From positions 161,603 through 225,602 of the forward strand of contig CAVTWB010000010.1 in NCBI GenBank assembly GCA_963738245.1: a stretch of DNA of 64,000 bases, read 5' to 3'. The notes under the pieces were generated by a model. The model had not been told where the DNA came from, searched no databases, and saw only the letters and a list, made by a program, of their open reading frames with translations. The stretch comes from an uncultured Verrucomicrobiae bacterium. Its GTDB lineage: Bacteria; Verrucomicrobiota; Verrucomicrobiia; Limisphaerales; UBA11358. The translations under genes and the position numbers were made by a program. Every line of letters starts with the position of its first letter. Within the stretch, counting starts at the first letter, position 1. Positions 1-62,590 of this stretch are shown one piece after another.

Positions 1-996
1 TCATCCGTCCAGTGCGCCGGATGAGTGTAAAGCAGGCGGATCCAGAAATCGCCTTTCAACGAATTCAGCTCGCGCAGCAGCGTGCAAATGGTTGCGGCAT
101 CGGCGGGCAGCGATTTGGCGGCGGCGGAAAATTTCTCCGGCGACGAAATCGCGCGCGAATGGTTCGGGCGCAAATCGAGACCGTAATAAGTCGAATCCTG
201 CGAAATCAGATTGATTTCCTTCACGCCATCGGCAATCAAGGCTTTTGCTTCCTTGACGATGTCGCGTTGCGTCCGGCTGCGGTGCGAGCCACGCATCCGG
301 GGAATAATGCAGAAGCTGCACGGATGATTGCAGCCCTCGGCGATTTTCAGATACGCAAAATGTTTCGGCGTCAGCCGGAAGCGCGGCGTGCTAAAATCGG
401 GGATGAAAACCGGGCGCGCGGTCACGTCCAGAATTGCGGATTGGGGCACGATGACGGTTTTTGTTTTCCCGAATTTGTCCGTGCCGCGCAGGGATTCTTC
501 TTTTTCGAGGGCGGACAAGTCGCGGGATTTTTCCAGTTCGTTCAAACGCGAAACAACTGTGCCTTTCTGGACTTTGGGCTTTGGGCTTTGGATTTTGGAC
601 TCCCGGTTGGCAATCGCCTTGCCCACGATGTCGCCGACCTGCGCGACCTGGTCAATGCCCATGAACGCGTCCACTTCGGGCATGAGCTTGGGCAGCTCCT
701 CGCGAAACCGCTGCGAGAGGCAGCCGGAAACGATGACGGCCTGGCCGCGCCGGCTCGCGTCGCGCAACTCGACGGATTCAAGAATGGTGTCCACGCTTTC
801 TTCCTGCGCGGAATCAATGAAGGAGCAGGTATTGACGATCACGGCATCGGCCTGCGACGCGTCGTTCGTGATCTCCACGCCGCTTTTCATCAACGAGCCG
901 AGCATGATTTCTGCGTCCACCAGATTCTTGGCGCAGCCGAGCGAAATCAAGCCGACGCGCAACGGACGGTTTTTTAATTTTTTGTCTTCAGTCACG
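1..996 (-). CDS. rimO: ribosomal protein S12 methylthiotransferase RimO (3' end runs off the window; 5' end frame-broken as assembled)
   Basis: The minus-strand frame is open from 974 to 3. It reads RVGLISLGCAKNLVDAEIMLG...IVSGCLSQR...YLKIAEGCNHPCSFCIIP (radical-SAM CxxxCxxC)...THPAHWTD. A plausible N-terminus VTEDKKLKNRPL (GTG at 996) is in the neighbouring frame, implying one extra base near 958-962. Confidence 0.85.
567..599 (-). repeat. 33-nt four-heptamer word element (CCAAA-type variant) in-frame inside rimO
   Basis: The coding strand reads TCCAAAA TCCAAAG CCCAAAG CCCAAAG TCCAG, which is 4x7+5 nt and encodes SKIQSPKPKVQ. It lies within a roughly 50-aa K/E-rich linker expansion between the MTTase N-domain and the radical-SAM domain. 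Confidence 0.7.
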
Positions 997-7253: not shown

Positions 7254-7282
7254 AACAAATTTTTAAGTTTTCAATTTGCGAA

Positions 7283-11164: not shown

Positions 11165-11250
11165 GTTAAATCGTTAAATCGTTACTTTGTTAAATCGTTG
11201 CACCGGGATTTGCCGAACCGGTTTAACGATTCGACCATTCAACAATTTAG
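11165..11250. repeat. inverted pair of tandem-word arms (gttaaatc words)
   Basis: gttaaatc gttaaatc gttacttt gttaaatc gttgcaccgg ... ccggtttaacgattcgaccattcaacaattt. Occupies the spacer between two minus-strand genes. Confidence 0.6.
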
Positions 11251-47312: not shown

Positions 47313-47393
47313 CGGATTGATGGATTATTGGATGAATGGATTGCTGAAAGGCTGCCAATTCATTTATCCACCAATCCTAACATCCGTTCATCC
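47313..47393. repeat. inverted pair of four-word arms (ggattgat-type 8-mers) downstream of purH
   Basis: ggattgat ggattatt ggatgaat ggattgct ... caattcat ttatccac caatccta acatccgt tcatcc. Confidence 0.65.
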
Positions 47394-52194: not shown

Positions 52195-53937
52195 TCAAAT
52201 GTCGCGTTTCAACTGCTTCACCAACACCGCCGCCGCCGATACATTGACGACATCCGTTTTTTCCAGCCAGCCCTTGCGCGCAATGCCAGCGCCCAGCCGC
52301 AGAAATCCCGCGTGCGCGTTCCGGTGCGCGTCGGGATTGATGACACACTTCACGCCTTTGCTTTTCGCGTGCGGCCAGTGCCGCCAGTCCAAATCCAGCC
52401 GGTGCGGATTGCAATTCAATTCAATCCACGTCCCCGTCGCCGCGCACGCGTCAATCACCGCCGGCACGTTCACCGGATACGGCTCGCGCTCCAACAGCAG
52501 CCGTCCGGTCAGGTGACCGAGAATATGGACAAACGGATTTTCCGCCGCGCGAATCAGCCGCTTTGTGTTCTCGGCCTCGCTGCTGCTCGGAACGTGCAGG
52601 CTCGCCACCACCACCTCCAGTTCCGCCAAAACATCGTCGTCAAAATCCAGCTTGTCCTTGAGAATGTCCACCTCCGTTCCCGTCAACAGCCGGAACTTGC
52701 GGCCTTCGCCGGCCAGCCGGTCGTTTAATTTTTTGATTTCCTGGATTTGCGACCGCAGCCGTTTCGCGTCCAGCCCGTTGGCCTGATAAGATGCTTTCGA
52801 GTGATCCGTGATCGCCCAATATTCAAGCCCTAAATCTTCCATGTAGTCGGCAATTTCCTCCAGCGTGTTGTGGCCGTCGCTCCAGTTCGAATGGTTGTGC
52901 AGCGCGCCTTTCAAATCCGTCCACTCGATCAATTTCGGCAAGTCATTTTTTCCGCCCGCCAAAAATTCACCGTGGTCCTCGCGGATTTCCGGCGGAATGT
53001 AAGGCAGCTCCAGCTTCGCAAAAATGTCCTCCTCCGCTTCGCACGGCACGAGCAGTTTCGGATCGCGCGTCTCCTCCTTGGATTTGAACAGACCGTATTC
53101 ATTCAGCCGCAGCCCGCGCTGGATGGCCCGCTGGCGCATAACGATGTTGTGCTCCTTGCTGCCGGTGAAATACGCCAGCGCGAACGGAAACTCCGCGTCG
53201 CTCACCACGCGCAAATCGCACTGGATGCCGCCGTCCAGAATCACACTCGCCTTCGTCTCGCCTTTGGCGATGACTTTCAAAATGCCCGGCTGCGAAACAA
53301 AATGCTCAATCACCGCCACCGGTTTCTTCGACGACGCCAGCAAATCAATGTCGCCGATGACCTCCTTGAACCGCCGCAGGCTGCCCGCCGTGCTGCACCG
53401 GATCACGTCGGGATGTTCGCGCAGATTTTCCAGCAACGTCTCGGCGGCCGGCAGCGCCTCGCTCAACAAATGTTTGCTCGCGTAAGTCCGTTTGCGCGCG
53501 ATGCCTTCCAAAATGTTTGCCTGCGTCTTCTCGCCAAATCCGTCCAGCTCCGCCACCTTGCCCGCCTTGCAGGCCGCCTCCAGTTTTTCAATCGAATCCA
53601 CGCCGAGCTTTTTGTTCAGCGCCTGGATTTTTTTCGGGCCAAGCCCGGAAATTTCCAGCATCTCGATCAAGCCCGGCGGAATGGAAGCCTTCAGCTCGTC
53701 GTAGTATTTCAATTTTCCCGTCTCGACCAGCTCCGTAATTTTTTGTTCCAGCGCCTCGCCGATGCCCTTGATTTCACCGAGCCGTTTTTCGGCGACGAGC
53801 GTTGCCAGCGGTTCGCTCAAGCCCTCCAGCGTCCGCGCCGCGTTCGCATAGGCGCGGGTTTTGAACGGATTTTCGCCCTTCAATTCCAGCAGCGTTCCGA
53901 TTTCCACCAAAATCTCGGCAACCTTGTCTTTGTCCAT
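52195..53937 (-). CDS. polX: DNA polymerase/3'-5' exonuclease PolX (Pol-beta-like plus PHP domain)
   Basis: NPFKTRAYANAARTLE, HhH motifs (GIGEALEQKI, GLGPKKIQ), GSLRRFKEVIGDIDLL, PHP His cluster ALHNHSNWSDG...DHS... Confidence 0.88.
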   Translation of the reverse strand: MDKDKVAEILVEIGTLLELKGENPFKTRAYANAARTLEGLSEPLATLVAEKRLGEIKGIGEALEQKITELVETGKLKYYDELKASIPPGLIEMLEISGLGPKKIQALNKKLGVDSIEKLEAACKAGKVAELDGFGEKTQANILEGIARKRTYASKHLLSEALPAAETLLENLREHPDVIRCSTAGSLRRFKEVIGDIDLLASSKKPVAVIEHFVSQPGILKVIAKGETKASVILDGGIQCDLRVVSDAEFPFALAYFTGSKEHNIVMRQRAIQRGLRLNEYGLFKSKEETRDPKLLVPCEAEEDIFAKLELPYIPPEIREDHGEFLAGGKNDLPKLIEWTDLKGALHNHSNWSDGHNTLEEIADYMEDLGLEYWAITDHSKASYQANGLDAKRLRSQIQEIKKLNDRLAGEGRKFRLLTGTEVDILKDKLDFDDDVLAELEVVVASLHVPSSSEAENTKRLIRAAENPFVHILGHLTGRLLLEREPYPVNVPAVIDACAATGTWIELNCNPHRLDLDWRHWPHAKSKGVKCVINPDAHRNAHAGFLRLGAGIARKGWLEKTDVVNVSAAAVLVKQLKRDI

Positions 53938-54001
53938 GCCCCTAAAATGGCCGTGCAAGTTCCAAGTTTCAAGTTGTCGTTTGCTCCGCTAAATTTACCG
54001 C

Positions 54002-54891
54002 ATGTTAAAACGCAAAGAACTGCCCGTTGCGCTCACCATCGCCGGCTCGGACAGCGGCGGCGGCGCGGGCGTTCAGGCCGATCTGAAAACGTTTGCCGCG
54101 CTTCGGCGTCCACGGCACCAGCGCGATTGCCTGCCTCACCGCGCAAAATCCAAAACAGGTTTTGGCGGCCGAGCCGTGTTCGCCCAAAATGCTGCGGCGG
54201 CAGATCGAAGCCGTGTTTGCCGAACTGAAACCGGCGGCGGTGAAAACCGGAATGTTGTTTTCGGTGGAAAACATTTCCGTCGTCGCGGATTTCTACCGCA
54301 ACTCGAAACTGAAAACTAAAAACTCAAAACTGATCGTGGATCCGGTCATGGTATCCACCAGCGGCGCTAAATTGCTCCAGCCGGCGGCGGTAAAAATCCT
54401 GACGGGAAAAACTGCTGCCACTGGCCGCGCTCGTCACGCCGAATCTGGACGAGGCGGAAATTCTGGCGGAACAAAAAATTTCGTCGCCGGAGGATTTGCG
54501 TGCCGCCGCGCGGAAAATCCAGGCGCGTTTCGGCTGTGCGGTTTTGGTGAAAGGCGGCCACCTGAAAAATTCCCGCGAGGCAATTGACGTTTTCTTCGAC
54601 GGAGAAACGGAACTGCTGCTGTCCGCTCCGTTTGTGAAGGGCGTTTCGACGCACGGCACCGGCTGCACTTATTCCGCCGCGATTTGCGCCGCGCTGGCGC
54701 TCGGCCACGATTTGCCGCACGCGGTGGAGATCGGGAAAAATTTCATCACGGCAGCTATCGCCGGCAGCTTCCGCATCGGAAAACATTTCGCGCTCGGATA
54801 TTTTCCGCTCAAAGATCCGGCCAGCTCAACTGGTAAAACTGGTTCGCATTTGTCGCGTTCAGGAAAATGTAATTGCTGCCGTTCGCGATGA
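54002..54891 (+). pseudogene. thiD: hydroxymethylpyrimidine/phosphomethylpyrimidine kinase ThiD, two +1 frame breaks as assembled; true 3' end uncertain
   Basis: [24 protein letters not shown] | [15 protein letters not shown]...KTGML...IVDPVMVSTSGAKLL... | LLPLAALVTPNLDEAEIL...VLVKGGHL...GTGCTYSAAICAALA. There is an extra base near 54101-54105 and one in the A-run at 54407-54411. Confidence 0.85.
54300..54332 (+). repeat. 33-nt four-heptamer element E1, in-frame in thiD
   Basis: AACTCGAAACTGAAAACTAAAAACTCAAAACTG encodes [11 protein letters not shown] directly before the conserved IVDPVM. Confidence 0.85.
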
Positions 54892-56445
54892 CCGGCGCCG
54901 GAAGATTGTTCGTCGTCCAGGCGACGGGCGGCGTCAAACCGGCCGTGGCTTCTAGCTGAAATCCGGCGGGATAAACCGGCCAGGCGAGCGTCACGTTCGT
55001 TTCCGTGGCGGCGATGTTCAGCGACTGCGAGAAAAAGGCCCACGCGAGCGCGTAGGTTTCGCTCGCGCTGACGGTCGTTCCGCCGTGTTTCAAAACCTGC
55101 AAGTCATAGCGGCTCTGCGGCAACTGCGGCAGCCAGAGGTGCTCGACGTTGTCCACCATGCTCGTGCTGCACGCGACGAGATTGCTGTTGGCGCAATCGT
55201 AAAGAAACAGATCCAGGTTGTTGATGCCGGTCTGGTTTTGCTGCCGGTTCCAGACGAGCGTGGCGGTGGCGGTGAATTGCGCGGCGTTCAAATTGTTCGT
55301 GACGTTGAAATAATAATGTTTCACGCCGTCGGTGGTGGCGCTGCTGGTGTTGGTGTTGAAATCCCAGCCGCTCAATACGTTGATGGTTCCCGTCGCGCCG
55401 GTCGGCAGATGCGGGCTGTTGGTGGTGACGATAGCGAAAGCGATGTAACCCTGTTTTCCACCCGCGAGCTGTTCGTAGGAATTAAAAAGATTCACCACAC
55501 CCGCGCCGTAGCGGAAGTCCAGCGGCGAAGGCGCAATATTCGTCCAGTCGGCAGGCTTGACCGCGCCGTTTAATAATAGCGCCTTCACCGTGCGGATGTC
55601 GGCGGCGGCATTGGTGCTGCTCCCGCCGTCGCCGCGCAAACCGGCCTGCATCAGCACCGCTGCCGCGCCGGCAACGTAGGGCGTGGAAAAACTCGTCAGT
55701 CTCGCCAGGCCCGGCGCGGTGATGTCCGGCTTGCAGCGGCCGTTGTCCACCGTCGGGCCGACGCTCGAAATTGTGGAACCGTTGATAAGCGCCGACGCTG
55801 ATGCAATTGTAACCCGTTGCCCGGCGCGCCGACCGGAACCCGTCCGTTGTTTCCTGCACCGGAGACAAAAAGCGTGCTGTATTTGGCGGCGTAATTATCA
55901 AACTTGTGAATCCAACTGACTGTTGCATGCCCACGGTGATATAGCCCGGTGGCGGGGAATTGTTGGTGGTGACATAACCAAAAATGAAACTTTGATTGAC
56001 GACCCGATCATTGATGTTCGCGGTCGCCGGCACGACGAAATGTGCTGTAAAAAAAATCGGCCTCGAAATTGTCCACATGCATCACGTTCGTGGCCACGCC
56101 GCCGGGGGTCGGCCATACAAATTGTGGTGCCGTAAAAATCCCCACCGCGTCCGCGTGGCCTGACTCATCGCCAAGGCCATTGGGAAAGCTGGTGCTGGTG
56201 CCTGAAGCGGAAGTGTAAGTAAAAAGCCCGTCGGCTGGCCGACCGCAGCGGGATTAACTTCCCAGTGTTTGTCCCGTGAACCATTGGTATCGCCGTTATT
56301 GGCTTCCGCCTGCGCCACGCGGATGCCCGTGCCATCCAGATTAGTCGTCACCGCTCGCAAAGTGGTCACGCCGATTTCATCCAGATATTGCGTCCGTGCC
56401 GTCAGGCTGCCCGGAAAACACGGCGTAAAAAAACACTAGTCCCAT
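54809..56445 (-). pseudogene. subtilisin-like (S8) serine peptidase, heavily frame-broken
   Basis: Fragments in at least 4 frames: ..LDGTGIRVAQAE.., ..DESGHADAVGIF.., ..LFVSGAGNNG.., ..YNCISVGAY.., ..LTSFSTPYVAGAAAVLMQAG.. (His and Ser boxes), plus an intact 313-aa C-terminal region. Confidence 0.7.
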
Positions 56446-56563
56446 TTCGTTTCCATAATTTCCTCATAAATTTGCTCGGCACACCATAACTCATCTCTGG
56501 CAAAAATCCAAACCCGTTTGAATAATTCTGTTTAATTTTGCCGGTTCCGTTTAATTTTAGGCG

Positions 56564-57307
56564 ATGTCCGACACGCTCGTCGTCAACGAAGTCTATTTGA
56601 GCCTGCAGGGTGAAAGCACCTTCGCCGGGCTGCCGTGCATTTTCATCCGGCTCACCGCGTGCGACTTGCGCTGCTCCTACTGCGACACCGCCTACGCCTT
56701 CACCGAAGGCAAAAAGAAAACGCTCGCGGAAATTCTGGCGGAAGTCCGTCGGCAGGCCGCGCCGTTTTTGAATTCAAAATTAAATATTCAAAATTCAAAA
56801 CTGCCCTTGGTGGAACTGACCGGCGGCGAGCCGCTGCTCCAGAAAAATTCCCTGCCGCTGATGAAATCGCTCTGCGACGACGGCTTCACCGTTTTGCTCG
56901 AGACCAGCGGCGCGCATGACATTTCCAAAATTGACCCGCGCGTCCGCCGCATCATGGACTTGAAATGCCCGTCCAGCGGCGAAGTTGCCCGCAACCGGTT
57001 TGAAAACATTGCGCACCTGAAAGCCACGGACGAAATCAAATTCGTCATCGGCACGCGGGAGGATTATGATTGGGCCAAGCTGCAAATTGCCGAGCACCAG
57101 CTTGCTTCCGTCTGCCCGCTGCTGTTTTCCTGGGTGCATCCGCTCACGCCGGCGCAGCAGAGCAAGGTGCTCAAAAAAGTTCCCGCCGGGCACACGCCGA
57201 TTTCCCGCCGGGAGCTCGCGGAAAAAATCATCGCCGACGCGCTGCCGGTGCGTTTCCAAATCCAGCAGCACAAAATCATCTGGCCGCCGGAACAGCGCGG
57301 CGTTTAG
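56564..57307 (+). CDS. queE: 7-carboxy-7-deazaguanine synthase QueE (radical SAM)
   Basis: VNEVYLSLQGESTFAGLPCIFIRLTACDLRCSYCDT...ELTGGEPLLQ... Confidence 0.88.
   Translation: MSDTLVVNEVYLSLQGESTFAGLPCIFIRLTACDLRCSYCDTAYAFTEGKKKTLAEILAEVRRQAAPFLNSKLNIQNSKLPLVELTGGEPLLQKNSLPLMKSLCDDGFTVLLETSGAHDISKIDPRVRRIMDLKCPSSGEVARNRFENIAHLKATDEIKFVIGTREDYDWAKLQIAEHQLASVCPLLFSWVHPLTPAQQSKVLKKVPAGHTPISRRELAEKIIADALPVRFQIQQHKIIWPPEQRGV
56771..56803 (+). repeat. 33-nt four-heptamer element E2, in-frame in queE
   Basis: AATTCAAAATTAAATATTCAAAATTCAAAACTG encodes NSKLNIQNSKL directly before PLVELTGGEP. Confidence 0.85.
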
Positions 57308-57308
57308 C

Positions 57309-57388
57309 AATTTACGATTTACGATTGCCGATTTACGATTGGCAAAACAGCGGCGCGTAAATCGTAAATCAAAAATCGTAAATTCGTG
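57309..57388. repeat. inverted pair of 33-nt four-heptamer arms (atttacg words) filling the queE-aminotransferase spacer
   Basis: AATTTAC GATTTAC GATTGCC GATTTAC GATTG gcaaaacagcggcg CGTAAAT CGTAAAT CAAAAAT CGTAAAT TCGTG. The right arm includes the GTG start at 57386. Confidence 0.75.
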
Positions 57389-57714
57389 ACCACAACAGAG
57401 ACTTTTCAATTACTCCGCGACTACGAATCGCGCAACATCGTGTTCATTGAGCCCGACGGCTCGTGGCCGATTGTCTGGGAACGCGCCAAGGGCGTTCACG
57501 TCTGGGATGCGGAGGGCAAAAAATATCTGGATCTGACCGCCGCGTTCGGCGTCGCCGCCGCCGGCCACGCGAATCCAAACGTCGTTCGCGCCGGGACAGA
57601 AACAGATGGCCAAACTGCTGCACGCGATGGGCGATGTGCATCCGCACGCGCTCAAGGCCGAACTCGCGCGGGAATTGAGCCGCATCACTTTCGAGCGGTG
57701 GAGCAGCCTGTCAG

Positions 57715-57747
57715 AACTCAAAACTAAAAATTCAAAATTCAAAACTG
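57715..57747 (+). repeat. 33-nt four-heptamer element E3, in-frame in the aminotransferase but in a different codon phase
   Basis: AACTCAAAACTAAAAATTCAAAATTCAAAACTG is read as (E)LKTKNSKFKT(G) directly before KVIFSNSG. Confidence 0.85.
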
Positions 57748-58448
57748 GAAAAGTGATTTTCTCCAACTCCGGTTTCGAAGCCGTCGAATCCGCGCTGAAA
57801 ACCGCGATGCTCGCCACCGGCAAACGCGGCGTCATTGCGTTTGAGGGCGCGTATCACGGCCTCGGCTACGGAGCACTGAACGCCACGCACCGCGAACATT
57901 TCCGCAGCCCGTTCCGCTCGCAACTGCGCGAATTTGGAAGTTTTGTGACGTTTCCGAATCAACCGGCACAGCTCGCGGCAATTGAAAAAGACATCCGCCA
58001 GATTTTCCGCCGCAAGAAAATCGGCGCGATTCTCGTCGAGCCGGTGCAGGCGCGCGGCGGCATCAACATCCCGCCGACGGAATTTCTGCCGCTGCTCCGC
58101 AAACTTTGCGACAAATTTGGCGCGTTGCTCATCCTCGACGAAATTTACACCGGCTTTGGCCGCACCGGCAAATGGTTCGCGTGCGAGCACAGCGGCGTGG
58201 TTCCTGATTTGATCTGCCTCGGCAAGGCGCTGACCGGCGGTTTTCCGCTGTCGGCCTGCGTCGGCCGCGCGGATTTGATGGACGCCGCGTGGCCGACCTC
58301 GACCGGCGAGGCGATTCACACCAGCACATTCCTCGGCCATCCCGTCGGCTGCGCGATGGCGCTGGCGCAAATCTCTGAAATCCGCCGGCTGAAACTTTGC
58401 GAACGCAGCGCGGTGCTCGGAAAATTTCTTGTTGAACGAGCTTGCTTC

Positions 58449-58483
58449 AATTCAAAATTCAAAATTCAAAATTCAAAATTCTG
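58449..58483 (+). repeat. 35-nt variant E4 of the four-heptamer element, coinciding with an aminotransferase frame break
   Basis: AATTCAAAATTCAAAATTCAAAATTCAAAATTCTG. Compared with the canonical ...CAAAACTG end it has 2 extra nt (TT at 58479-80). Confidence 0.8.
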
Positions 58484-58702
58484 CTGCGCGGCCTCGGTTT
58501 GATGGCCGGCGTGGAATTGACATTGCCCGACGGCAAGCCCGCCACCGAAACGGCGTTGCGCGCGATCAAAACACTGTTGCATCGCGGCTACATTTTCCTG
58601 CCGGAAGGCGAATTTGCCAACGTCATCAGCTTCACGCCGCCGCTGACAATTACCAAAGTCGCAGCTTGCAAAAGCCGTTGCCGCGCTGGCGGAGGTTTTG
58701 CA

Positions 58703-59632
58703 ATGACGCTCACCGAAATGCGCGCGTTGCTGGCGAAACGCGACATCCAACTGACGCGCTCGCTCGGCCAGAATTTTCTCCACGACGGCAACCAACTCCG
58801 GCGCATCGTGGACGCGGCGGAAATCACGCCGGCGGATAAAATTCTGGAAATCGGGCCGGGGCTGGGGCCGTTGACGGAATTGCTTTTGGAAAAAGCCGGC
58901 GAGGTGCTGGCGATTGAAATGGACGCGCGGCTGGTGGATTTTTTGTGCGAGCGGTTCGGCACGGAACAACGGAATCGCCGATTTGCTGGTCGGACGCAGT
59001 TGAGCCGGCCAGCCAGAAAAGCTGTCCGAGCCGGAGCAGAGTGCGGCGTTCCATCTATTGCACGATGACGCGCTGGCATTTCTCAAGCGCGAGCCGCGCG
59101 ACTGGAGCGATTGGAAGCTCGTGGCGAACCTGCCGTATTCCGTCGCCTCGCCGATTTTGGTGGAACTCGCCGCCGGCCCGCGCGCGCCGAAGATGATCGT
59201 CGCCACGCTGCAACTGGAAGTCGCGAAGCGGCTGATGGCGCAGGCGGACGACGACGATTACGGCATCCTGACGCTGCTGGTGCAGCTTGATTTTGAGCCG
59301 CGCGGCAGCTTCAAGATTCCGCCGGAATGTTTTTTCCCGTCGCCGGACGTGGATTCCGCGTGCGTGTGCCTGCGTGCGCCGCGCGACGCCGCTGCTGCCG
59401 GAAAATCTCCGCGCCGACCTTCGTAAAAATCGTCAAGCGCGGCTTCTCGCAACGGCGCAAGATGATGCTGAAATTGTTGAAACAGGATTGGGCGGCGGAC
59501 AAACTGGCGGCCGCGTTTGCCGAATTAAAAATCTCGCCGCAGGAACGCGCGGAGAAATTGAGCTTGGAACAGTTTGTGGCGCTCACGCAATTCTTGAGTA
59601 GCCACAACTTTATGAATAAAAAATTGTTGTAG
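58703..59632 (+). pseudogene. rsmA: 16S rRNA (adenine1518/1519-N6)-dimethyltransferase RsmA/KsgA, multiple frame breaks as assembled
   Basis: MTLTEMRALLAKRDIQLTRSLGQNFL...ILEIGPGLGPLTELLL | ..FHLLHDDALAFL...LVANLPYSVASPIL...FFPSPDVDSACVCL | ..PLLPENL.. | FVKIVKRGFSQRRKMM... Confidence 0.82.
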
Positions 59633-60949: not shown

Positions 60950-61465
60950 ATGAGCGAAGAAATTTTTGACATCGTCAACGAGCGCGACGAGGTGGTCGGG
61001 CAGAACACGCGGCGCGAGGTTCATGCGCGCGGGTTGTGGCATCGCGCGGTGCATGTGCTGGTGTTCAATGCGCGCGGCGAGGTGTTTCTCCAGAAGCGCT
61101 CGATGAAAAAGGACATCGCCGCCGGCAAATGGGATTCGTCGGCGTCCGGCCATCTGGACAGCGGCGAGGCTTACGACGCGTGTGCGGTGCGCGAGGTGCG
61201 CGAGGAGATCGGACTGAACATTGTGACGACAGACAGCCGCACGCGGCTTTTCAAGATTGACGCGCGCAAGGAGACGGGCTGGGAATTCTGCTGGATTTAC
61301 CGCTGCGAAAACGAAGGGCCGTTCGTTTTGCATCCCGATGAAATCGAGACGGGCGCGTGGTTCGCGCCGGACGCGGTGACGAAGTGGGTGAACGAAAAGC
61401 CGCAGGATTTTGCGAGCGCGTTTGTGCTGATCTGGAAAACATTCGTTAAATCGTTGAAGTGTTGA
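60950..61465 (+). CDS. Nudix hydrolase
   Basis: Nudix box GKWDSSASGHLDSGEAYDACAVREVREEIGL. The 5' 65 nt form DR2. Confidence 0.85.
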   Translation: MSEEIFDIVNERDEVVGQNTRREVHARGLWHRAVHVLVFNARGEVFLQKRSMKKDIAAGKWDSSASGHLDSGEAYDACAVREVREEIGLNIVTTDSRTRLFKIDARKETGWEFCWIYRCENEGPFVLHPDEIETGAWFAPDAVTKWVNEKPQDFASAFVLIWKTFVKSLKC

Positions 61466-61515
61466 ATTGTTATATCGCCCGCAAAATTTCGATTCAACGA
61501 TTCAACAATTTAACC
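61444..61515. repeat. inverted pair of tandem-word arms overlapping the nudix 3' end
   Basis: cgttaaatcgttgaagtgttgaattgtt ... tcgattcaacgattcaacaatttaacc. The left arm encodes the last residues FVKSLKC*. Confidence 0.6.
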
Positions 61516-61569
61516 ATTCAGCGATTCTTCCACACTTTACTTGCGGCGAAAATGGAGTAGTTATTTCCC

Positions 61570-62196
61570 ATGCAAAATTATTTCGTTCCGATTGTGGTGG
61601 AGCAGACCGGGCGCGGTGAGCGGAGCTGGGACATTTATTCCCGCCTGCTCGTGGACCGCATTCTTTTCCTCGGCACGCCGGTGGATGACAACGTCGCCAA
61701 CATCATCATCGCGCAGCTTTTGTTTCTCCAGATGGCCGACCCGAAGAAGGACATCCATCTCTACATCAATTCGCCCGGCGGCAGCGTCACGGCGGGGCTG
61801 GCGATCTACGACACCATTCAATACATGACCTGCGACGTGAACACCTATTGCGTCGGGCAGGCGGCGAGCATGGGCGCGGTGCTGCTGGCGGCGGGCACGA
61901 AGGGCAAGCGTTACGCGCTGCCGAATTCCAACGTCATGATCCACCAGGTGCTCGGCGGCGCCGAAGGGCAGGCGAGCGACGTGGAAATTCGCGTGAAGCA
62001 CATGCTCAAGCTCAAGCAGACGCTGAACGCCATCCTCTCGAAACACACGGGCAAGCCGGTGGAACAGGTGGAGAAGGATTGCGACCGCGACAATTTCATG
62101 ACGGCCGACGAAGCGAAAGCCTACGGCCTCGTGGATCACGTCGTGCAGTCGCGCCGGGAAATTCCCGGCGCGGAAAAAAGCTCCGTGGTGGTTTGA
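61570..62196 (+). CDS. clpP: ATP-dependent Clp protease proteolytic subunit
   Basis: [31 protein letters not shown]...[17 protein letters not shown]...[11 protein letters not shown]...IHQVLGG. Confidence 0.95.
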
Positions 62197-62253
62197 GAAA
62201 ATCAGGTTGTCAGTCGCGCAGCCAATGAAAGCGGCGTAGTTGGGGCAATTTTC

Positions 62254-62590
62254 CCCTGCGCGCGGGGTAAATTCACCTTCGTGCGGGCATATTTCGTTCC
62301 CGTGCGGGCATCATTTACCCCCGTGCGCCTTGTTTTCGCCTCCATACAGGTGTTTTTCACTCCCCATCGCCTGTTTTCGGCTCCGTGCGGGGCATTTGCT
62401 GGTTCGTGCGGGCGTTTTTCACTCCGTGCGGGCCATCGGCCCGTCCGTGCGCCCGTTTTTCGGTTCGTGCGGAGGATTTGCCGCTCCGTGCGGACCAACT
62501 CCCGCTCCGTGCGGGCGGCCTCGGCTGCCGAACAGCCATTTCCCGTTCCGTGCGGCTGTGCAGAAAAATATTGCGCCCGTCCGCAACCGG
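62254..62590. repeat. tandem array A2: about 16 slots of 20-21 bp (CCGTGCGGGC dyad core plus T-tract)
   Basis: GTGCG cores at 62281, 62302, 62323, 62385, 62406, 62426, 62447, 62467, 62488, 62509 and 62550 (spacings 21, 21, 62, 21, 20, 21, 20, 21, 21, 41). Example units: ttcgtgcgggcgtttttcac, tccgtgcgcccgtttttcgg. Confidence 0.88.

Follow-up and report, generated by a model that had tools for sequence, protein, structure and literature searches.

Heptanucleotide repeat arrays of about 33 nucleotides, in frame within conserved enzymes of an uncultured Verrucomicrobiae lineage

Introduction

How does a repeat with a seven-nucleotide unit come to lie, and to stay, inside the reading frames of conserved enzymes? 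This question is raised by a 64,000-nucleotide (nt) stretch of DNA from an uncultured Verrucomicrobiae bacterium (GenBank assembly GCA_963738245.1, contig CAVTWB010000010.1, positions 161,603 to 225,602 of the forward strand; hereafter, the window). Within 4.2 kb of this stretch, the genes thiD and queE and an aminotransferase gene carry four AT-rich segments, E1 to E4, composed of tandem heptamers. The original prediction, made from the letters alone, described them as one family of 33-nt elements inserted in frame at four sites. Comparison with related genomes showed instead that they belong to a system of heptamer microsatellites that lie in frame, persist at orthologous sites and have a fixed length of about 33 nt.

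Heptanucleotide repeats have been known since 2007 to be the commonest long simple repeats in bacteria. The present lineage provides a natural experiment, because the same enzyme loops carry arrays in hundreds of related genomes, so that birth, homogenisation, drift and decay can be read off the phylogeny, with the reading frame serving as a built-in filter. It shows that enzymes of an essential type can retain, over long periods, repeats with a unit length not divisible by three, that polar inserts of about 11 residues are tolerated at helix-to-strand loops, and that a sharp cap near 33 nt lies outside the reach of the quadruplex explanation proposed for Xanthomonas. In practical terms, these arrays, together with palindromic inserts, make proteins look more diverged than they are and break up profile matches during annotation.

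Four period-7 arrays in three conserved enzyme genes

All three host genes lie on the plus strand. E1 is carried by thiD (54002–54891), which encodes a hydroxymethylpyrimidine/phosphomethylpyrimidine kinase (HMP/HMP-P kinase; TIGR00097, E = 7e-87, with a solved-structure match). E2 lies in queE (56564–57307), an intact gene for 7-carboxy-7-deazaguanine synthase, and E3 and E4 lie in a class-III GabT/PuuE-like aminotransferase gene with a GTG start (57386–58705); the latter two genes were identified by matches to solved structures and to NCBIfam. E1 (54300–54332) is an AACTNNA-type heptamer array of 4.7 copies and 33 nt, located in the ThiD loop that precedes the strand IVDPVM. E2 (56771–56803) is a 33-nt array of the AATTCAA type that encodes NSKLNIQNSKL before VELTGGEP. 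E3 (57715–57747, with the periodicity beginning at 57711) consists of AAAACTN/AATTCAA units and encodes ELKTKNSKFKT before KVIFSNSG, and E4 (58449–58481) is a perfect 33-nt array, AATTCAA ×4.7, before ARGLGLMAG. All four arrays are read on the plus strand. The coordinates and translations predicted for E1, E2 and E3 (ELKTKNSKFKT for E3) were correct, as was the placement of the four arrays directly before the strand motifs IVDPVM, VELTGGEP, KVIFSNSG and RGLGLMAG. It was also right that the arrays are kept in frame, and that what defines the feature is the DNA (period 7) rather than the peptide.

The prediction for E4 had to be revised. It had been described as a 35-nt variant translated as NSKFKIQNSK(L). 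The perfect period-7 run is 33 nt long, and judged by close homologues, which read LLNELASIQNSKFKIQNS[A/V]RGLG at this site, that translation is in the wrong frame. After deletion of an extra T (~58425) and an extra G (~58487), the window matched the homologue reading, and the true reading of E4 is SIQNSKFKIQNS. Both the variant length and the apparent frameshift are thus artefacts of 1-nt assembly errors that flank the array. Such indels are spread throughout this assembly, and they break thiD twice and the aminotransferase gene at least three times. The single-base indels (54093, 54410, ~57600, ~58425, ~58487 and ~58660) fall mostly in short homopolymers, and an S8-like peptidase gene (minus strand, 54809–56400) is likewise split by indels into several reading frames. 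The pattern in the three genes points to an error-prone assembly and not to pseudogenes.

Tandem Repeats Finder assigned period 7 and 4.0–5.1 copies to each of E1–E4, with E4 being 100% perfect. A degenerate 32-nt pattern matched the four arrays only and had no match in 100 shuffles, and a looser 3-unit pattern gave 11 overlapping matches against 0.04 expected, 10 of them within the four arrays. E1–E4 are therefore real period-7 arrays, far beyond chance. A failure of the motif to recur, which the original prediction had named as grounds for its own refutation, was partly seen in the window, the guanine-plus-cytosine (G+C) content of which is about 58%: arrays of heptamers with other units recur, whereas the AAAAYTN type is absent beyond the 4.2-kb cluster save for one weak, degenerate 3-unit site in an intergenic spacer (7259–7278, minus strand). 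Three of the four arrays have a common 3′ end, AAAAYTCAAAACTG, which is read in different codon phases.

RNA folding of E1–E4 gave no structure, with energies no better than those of shuffled sequences (z from −0.5 to +1.9). An Rfam scan of positions 53800–59000 at E ≤ 1 matched no family, and promoter and terminator consensus scans placed no site on the arrays. No terminal inverted repeats, repetitive extragenic palindromic (REP) hairpin or palindrome was seen in E1–E4, and the predicted absence of a target-site duplication was borne out. A miniature inverted-repeat transposable element (MITE) or REP-type repeat was rejected, because terminal inverted repeats, target-site duplication and predicted structure were all lacking.

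Orthologous sites hold arrays of the same length with different units

The arrays were compared with 80 related loci (given L numbers), all from Verrucomicrobia subdivision 3, Limisphaerales or Pedosphaera-like genomes, and with a second, independent sample of 115 metagenome QueE loci, about 200 orthologous loci overall. The public loci nearest to the window come from metagenome-assembled genomes of the same three groups of bacteria.

More than 100 homologues of 84–93% identity were retrieved in a protein search with QueE, nearly all of 247 residues and with an 11-residue segment at the site of E2 (variants NSKFKIQNSKL, NSQLSTLNSQL, NFKFQISNFKL, NSPLATRHSPL and NPQSAIRNPQL). In the DNA of the 80 related genomes, this site holds the units AATTCAA, AACTCTC, ATCTCAA, ACTCCGC, AATCGGC, CGTCACT and CCTCAAC, many of the arrays being 100% perfect, and the 11-residue peptides are the three-phase readings of these differing heptamers. 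The 115 metagenome loci repeated this picture. ThiD orthologues carry arrays of the same length with GCAATCC, TCCGCAC or AAATCGG, or else an 8-residue Lys-rich loop, FKKQKCPP. At least 12 different array units were found at the orthologous site of E4, and both aminotransferase sites, as well as an array in rimO (described below), likewise show other units in the same place across species. An alignment of orthologues, which had been suggested as a check, thus did not return a clean presence or absence of one element, since the same loops hold arrays with other units; this finding contradicts a single inserted 33-nt family. A reading in terms of a conserved peptide was also rejected: the peptides are wholly different between species at 90% protein identity, while the period of 7 is retained in the DNA.

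The standard 33-nt QueE loop occurs in 42 species, and in 25 of these the array is still periodic. Among the 25 periodic arrays, the mean distance between units was 0.87 within an array compared to 3.17 between the consensus units of different species. The arrays undergo concerted evolution. The 33-nt QueE loops form an unbroken series, at constant length, from perfect arrays to loops with no periodicity, and this continuous grading into decayed loops is a second contradiction of the inserted family. Pairs of loci had identical QueE arrays in 92% of cases at 98–100% flank identity, in 43% at 94–96%, and in about 2% below 92%, a turnover of the array about tenfold that of the flanking protein. 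Array length was fixed at 11 residues across the turnover pairs, and the closest differing pairs differed by a single residue. No frameshifted allele of the QueE array was found among the 115 metagenome loci or the 80 genome loci. These data indicate that the arrays are vertically inherited yet quickly turned over.

Within the QueE unit, positions 1–5 (AAYTC) are conserved and positions 6–7 are free. Positions 1–5 agree with the last, incomplete copy, AACTG, and this copy overlaps invariant Lys-Leu codons. The sequence AAAACT is present at the junction of array-free orthologues, both in QueE and at the E3 site, and the ThiD loop is natively Lys-rich. The shared ACTG-type end, originally regarded as the end of an element, is therefore native sequence. 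The native AAAACT junction, comprising Lys-Leu or Lys-Thr codons, probably seeded all three of these arrays.

The arrays occupy variable helix-to-strand loops

In an AlphaFold2 model of QueE, the array residues 70–80 are non-helical and lie between a helix (54–68) and a strand (82–86). The 10-residue block 71–80 has a mean predicted local distance difference test (pLDDT) score of 68, below the blocks on both sides. Mapping onto structures, another check proposed at the outset, thus placed the arrays in loops, both in the QueE model and in alignments to solved structures. The ThiD loop is 4 residues longer than that of array-free relatives and of the solved structure 7R8Y, and the E4 loop is only 1–4 residues longer than that of relatives and PuuE, whereas E3 has a net excess of 33 nt over orthologues in which the loop has 4 residues. 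The claim of a 33-nt insertion accordingly stands for E3 alone, measured against its shortest orthologues, the differences in ThiD and at E4 being far smaller. Because only E3 shows such a net gain, the arrays for the most part take the place of a variable loop that was already there, overwriting it.

Length varies in large steps. At the E3 site, the array is 33 nt in L001 (TCACGCC ×4.7) compared to 12 nt in L017 (TCACGCTTCACC), a second length class three units away, and L006 and L060 have a QueE loop of 12 nt, or 1.7 copies, compared to the standard 33 nt. A length difference of a single unit was never seen, and the steps between relatives were of three units.

In other species, these same loops are occupied by in-frame palindromic inserts of 60–140 nt that belong to at least three families, translated as RRDELHESQKS..GTRVTRPS, VAANVSSRQ..LTSAAT and LAPGFSP..GLKPGANE. 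They were found in the QueE loop of L035, L042, L061, L076 and L078, in the ThiD loop of L025, and in the E3 loop of the aminotransferase of L010, L015, L018, L025, L037, L038, L044–L046, L048, L076, L077 and L080. These inserts behave much like Rickettsia palindromic elements and are a phenomenon separate from the heptamer arrays. Since the loops accept them as well, they must be unusually permissive.

Period 7 predominates and array length has a ceiling

A census was made of the window and the 80 related loci (1.31 Mb). Period 7 accounted for 166 of about 290 arrays with three or more copies, with 71 canonical units. Away from the thiD–queE–aminotransferase cluster, the density of arrays was about 1 per 26 kb, and of the heptamer arrays in the loci sampled, about 70% are carried in frame by conserved enzymes. 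The lengths of perfect period-7 runs depart from geometric decay: they show a second mode at 29–33 nt and end at 33 nt, except for two at 36 nt. Coding arrays peak at 29–33 nt and non-coding arrays are spread over 19–34 nt, with the ceiling common to both.

A scan of viral contigs (L081–L200) for ACTCNNN ×3 followed by ACTC returned almost solely true heptamer arrays, in contigs of 27–70% G+C. Their lengths have a mode at 31–32 nt and a tail to 129 nt, with few arrays at 80–129 nt, and fewer of them than of random windows lie in long reading frames (33%, compared to 64%). Because viral contigs show a similar mode, a length of about 4.5 copies is general and not specific to this lineage. Frame quantisation in steps of 21 nt was considered as the cause of the 33-nt mode and rejected; it explains the steps of coding arrays, but fails for non-coding arrays, viral arrays that lie outside reading frames and a longer QueE loop.

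In 102 of 109 coding arrays, the unit is free of stop codons in all three phases. The original prediction had argued for an insertion from the fact that E3 is stop-free in a different codon phase from the others. This argument is without force, because any heptamer array passes through all three phases every 21 nt and is thus obliged to lack stop codons in each of them. The sense strand of coding arrays contains 33% A, 33% C, 20% T and 15% G, and S, R, K, Q, P, L, N and T predominate among the encoded residues. Where the unit is stop-free in both orientations, the sense strand is the A+C-rich one in 47 of 56 cases, although many of the arrays counted are orthologous, so that the counts are not independent. 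The polar, A+C-rich bias is consistent with selection for harmless polar loops, and a preference at the RNA level may also contribute.

A proposed origin in place

The arrays have the properties of heptanucleotide simple-sequence repeats (SSRs): head-to-tail copies of a unit that in such repeats measures 1–11 nt and here 7 nt, a length beyond that expected from base composition, and concerted evolution. We consider it likely that E1–E4 are SSRs of this kind that arose in place, in variable, solvent-exposed helix-to-strand loops. The process would begin with a permissive loop, and in the alignments these loops do vary widely in length and sequence among orthologues. The native A-rich codons at the 3′ junction, which encode Lys-Leu in QueE and ThiD (AAA-CTN) and Lys-Thr in E3 (AAA-ACT), would have provided the seed unit and been reiterated upstream. 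At about 4.7 copies, out-of-register pairing during replication or repair may spread variants between neighbouring units, through transient misalignment or through the loss of one unit followed by a compensating gain. This copying of variants would outpace point mutation, leaving an array that stays periodic while its unit drifts neutrally, which is the pattern seen among orthologues. Where a copy overlaps the Leu codon under selection, it would be held as a fixed anchor, as is apparent in the alignments. Selection would merely filter the outcome, admitting length steps that are multiples of three (21 nt for whole units), units that are stop-free in three phases, and three-phase peptides that are polar (S, R, K, Q, P, N, T), in keeping with the arrays observed. 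When homogenisation lapses, the array would decay in place into an ordinary 11-residue loop, a course that the QueE series displays. The arrays would on this explanation be without benefit to the enzymes.

Several points weigh against an origin of this kind. Homogenisation without change of length is deduced rather than observed. Growth from 1.7 to 4.7 copies by slippage of single units would require two frameshifted alleles of a housekeeping gene, and none was found in about 200 loci. The cap near 33 nt persists in a QueE loop with 9 additional nt (L254 and L279), in non-coding arrays and in viral contigs (mode 31–32 nt), and the reading-frame filter alone is therefore insufficient to account for it. 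One idea is that the out-of-register homology (array length minus 7, about 26 nt) may have to stay below the minimal efficient processing segment of recombination, which in E. coli is about 23–27 bp. Between different sites of one genome, units resemble each other somewhat more closely than expected (mean cyclic distance 2.63, expected 3.03, p = 0.004), and several unit types recur at many unrelated sites, possibly by copying between arrays. Finally, arrays at the E4 site persist across species whose QueE proteins are only 65–75% identical, which is long for a neutral repeat.

Alternative explanations

The likeness of units within a genome is what would be expected if arrays of about 33 nt arose, or were renewed, by being pasted whole from other arrays in the genome, by ectopic conversion or by template switching at breaks. 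Identical unit pairs occur in L008 (QueE and ThiD), L053 and L067, and near-identical ones in L028; the four arrays of the window are all of the AAAAYTN type; and a small vocabulary of units (AGTCCAA, AATCGGC, ACTCCGC, AAATCGG and AATTCAA) appears at unrelated sites in different species. Pasting would also fit the length of about 33 nt common to coding, non-coding and longer-loop contexts and, by avoiding frameshifted intermediates, would account for the fact that none were seen. Against this, the flanks of arrays at different sites have no homology by which conversion could be guided, the differences between the closest relatives are single substitutions rather than whole-array swaps, and the unit phase and positions 1–5 are bound to a local constrained junction at which a local seed is visible. 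The likeness of units within a genome may, moreover, stem from base composition, peptide filtering or shared ancestry. We regard wholesale pasting as unlikely, and copying between arrays as a birth step is a live alternative.

A second explanation would have the periodicity itself under selection, with the array acting as a cis-acting element: an unstructured, C/A-rich and G-poor platform on mRNA or single-stranded DNA, with about 7 nt per module. Its readers might be cold-shock or S1-type proteins with an oligonucleotide/oligosaccharide-binding (OB) fold, or Rho; alternatively, the array might pace translation before a buried strand. Taken with these variants, the proposal seems improbable. 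Several observations are in its favour, namely that the same sites keep arrays across deep divergence, that array length is uniform, that the arrays are predicted to be single-stranded and stand consistently just before a core beta-strand, that the A+C richness of the sense strand exceeds what stop avoidance needs (the 47 of 56 cases above), and that an intergenic inverted pair (described below) is conserved with compensatory changes. However, no unit sequence is conserved, which excludes a sequence-specific reader. Periodicity has decayed while the loop was kept in about 40% of the species with the 33-nt QueE loop, and many orthologues have no array at all. The strand bias is explained equally well by selection for polar peptides, and the arrays counted are in many cases orthologous rather than independent.

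There is also a slim chance that the genome actively maintains arrays of about 33 nt, which would then not be mutational debris: a process that measures length might write or trim them to about 4.7 units, or a sequence-independent reader covering about 7 nt per module might select for periodic, unstructured and G-poor tracts. If so, the mode at 31–33 nt across coding, non-coding and viral arrays would be the signature of a ruler, and the tracts would be tolerated even in housekeeping genes.

The original prediction, a mobile 33-nt family inserting in frame in the manner of a miniature Rickettsia palindromic element, is very unlikely and already contradicted. It drew on four near-identical AT-rich segments of 33 nt within 4.2 kb, three of them sharing AAAAYTCAAAACTG in different phases, and it is in keeping with the clean gain of 33 nt at E3 relative to the shortest orthologues and with the true in-frame palindromic inserts received by the same loops in other species. 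These points are outweighed by the failure of the motif to recur elsewhere in the window, the unrelated units at orthologous sites, the lack of terminal inverted repeats, target-site duplication or hairpin, the absence of a net 33-nt insertion in ThiD and at E4, and an ACTG end that is native to array-free orthologues.

Least credible of all is a contingency (phase-variation) switch in which the gain or loss of one 7-nt unit toggles thiD, queE or the aminotransferase gene: switches of this kind are classically built from a unit that is not a multiple of three within an open reading frame, and E4 looks frameshifted in the window, but that shift comes from flanking 1-nt assembly errors and not from unit number, the QueE array is out of frame in none of the 115 metagenome loci and none of the 80 genome loci, and the array-bearing genes encode housekeeping enzymes and are not surface or restriction-modification genes, so that this role is ruled out at the resolution of consensus assemblies.

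Comparison with known repeat systems

The short tandemly repeated repetitive (STRR) sequences of cyanobacteria, an analogy offered in the original prediction, proved to be of the right kind. STRR sequences occur in heterocystous cyanobacteria, are mainly intergenic and have fixed units of their own. As in the present arrays (71 units in 166 arrays), several tandem heptanucleotide families occur per genome, with no known function. Unlike STRR sequences, the arrays described here are verrucomicrobial, lie in frame in genes and have drifting units; the canonical STRR units were not among the frequent units of the 166 arrays. The other analogy, to Rickettsia palindromic elements, did not hold. Those elements are mobile palindromes of about 100–150 base pairs with a family consensus, and they resemble the present arrays in that both are repeats which the surface loops of conserved proteins accept in frame, whereas the arrays are 33 nt long, non-palindromic, unstructured as RNA and without a family consensus. 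With the contingency repeats of Haemophilus and Neisseria, the arrays share a unit in a reading frame that is not a multiple of three, but they show no one-unit alleles and their hosts are housekeeping enzymes.

Heptanucleotide repeats are the most abundant long SSRs in most prokaryotic genomes according to the survey of Mrazek (2007), as cited in PMC4679880 and PMC4692102, and polymerase slippage is their proposed origin (Mrazek, Guo and Shah 2007, as cited in the same two papers). The over-representation of 7-nt tandem units and the many units per genome are common to that survey, as there cited, and to our arrays. As cited, repeats inside genes mostly have units that are multiples of three, whereas here about 70% of heptamer arrays are in frame in enzymes. 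Orthologous persistence, concerted unit change and the fixed 33-nt length go beyond the survey in the form in which it is cited, where the lineage of the window, Verrucomicrobia subdivision 3, is not highlighted.

The heptamer repeats of Xanthomonas prefer four units, are flanked by the same genes in related species, vary in sequence and form inverted pairs (PMC4692102). The GGGAATC and GGGGA(T/C)T repeats of Xanthomonas and Nostoc thus resemble the present arrays in having about four units, kept positions with varying sequence, and hairpin-forming inverted pairs. Unlike the present arrays, they are rich in G, form quadruplexes and are depleted from genes (PMC4692102), whereas the arrays described here have a G-poor sense strand, are mostly coding and comprise many units. 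Because no quadruplex is possible on so G-poor a sense strand, it cannot explain the preference for four units here. The TAACTGA repeats of Beggiatoaceae, Cyanobacteria and Bacteroidetes are also abundant heptamer direct repeats, with 2–6 copies; unlike our arrays, they have a single fixed unit that contains stop codons, lie mostly just upstream of start codons and have been proposed as a binding site for a translation regulator (PMC4679880). A literature search found no description of in-frame heptamer repeats in Verrucomicrobia, and heptamers are not treated by Lin and Kussell (2012).

Other repeats in and around the window

The rimO gene (RimO by NCBIfam TIGR01125) contains a further in-frame heptamer array (568–601, minus strand) with a sense unit of the AGTCCAA type, encoding SKIQSPKPKVQ within an unusually long linker that joins the N-terminal domain to the radical S-adenosylmethionine domain. 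A short array, CAAGTTC ×2.9 (53956–53975), lies in the spacer upstream of thiD.

Intergenic arrays with units of 7, 8 or about 10 nt are often inverted pairs that form long hairpins. On the plus strand, between the queE stop codon and the GTG start of the aminotransferase gene, Tandem Repeats Finder detected ATTTACG ×4.4 (57310–57340) followed by CGTAAAT ×4 (57356–57383). The pair (57310–57383) constitutes a long hairpin that fills the spacer; its predicted RNA fold has an energy of −30.8 kcal/mol (z = −4.3), and 15 species carry the hairpin, with 3 compensatory pairs among them. In eight loci (L001, L007, L011, L029, L042, L044, L046 and L053), another hairpin composed of tandem units of about 10 nt (ACACAGATGG-type) follows the queE stop codon; in more distant species, the two genes lack a spacer altogether. 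Since the hairpin units differ among species groups, this spacer has been colonised by repeat hairpins that differ between lineages.

Arrays with 8-nt units (about 4 copies, 30–38 nt) are mostly intergenic and were found at 11165–11199, 47314–47342 and 61453–61527 of the window and at 239–332 and 5462–5534 of L002. They are often inverted pairs with hairpin arms of about 30 nt, as in GTTGAAKT / CGATTCAA upstream of clpP. Downstream, between clpP (61570–62196) and the next reading frame, positions 62240–62560 contain about 13 copies of a 9–10-nt sequence, YCCGTGCGG(G/C). The copies are spaced about 20–21 nt apart, or two helical turns, and Tandem Repeats Finder reported periods of 21 and 41; this region looks like a candidate array of binding sites.

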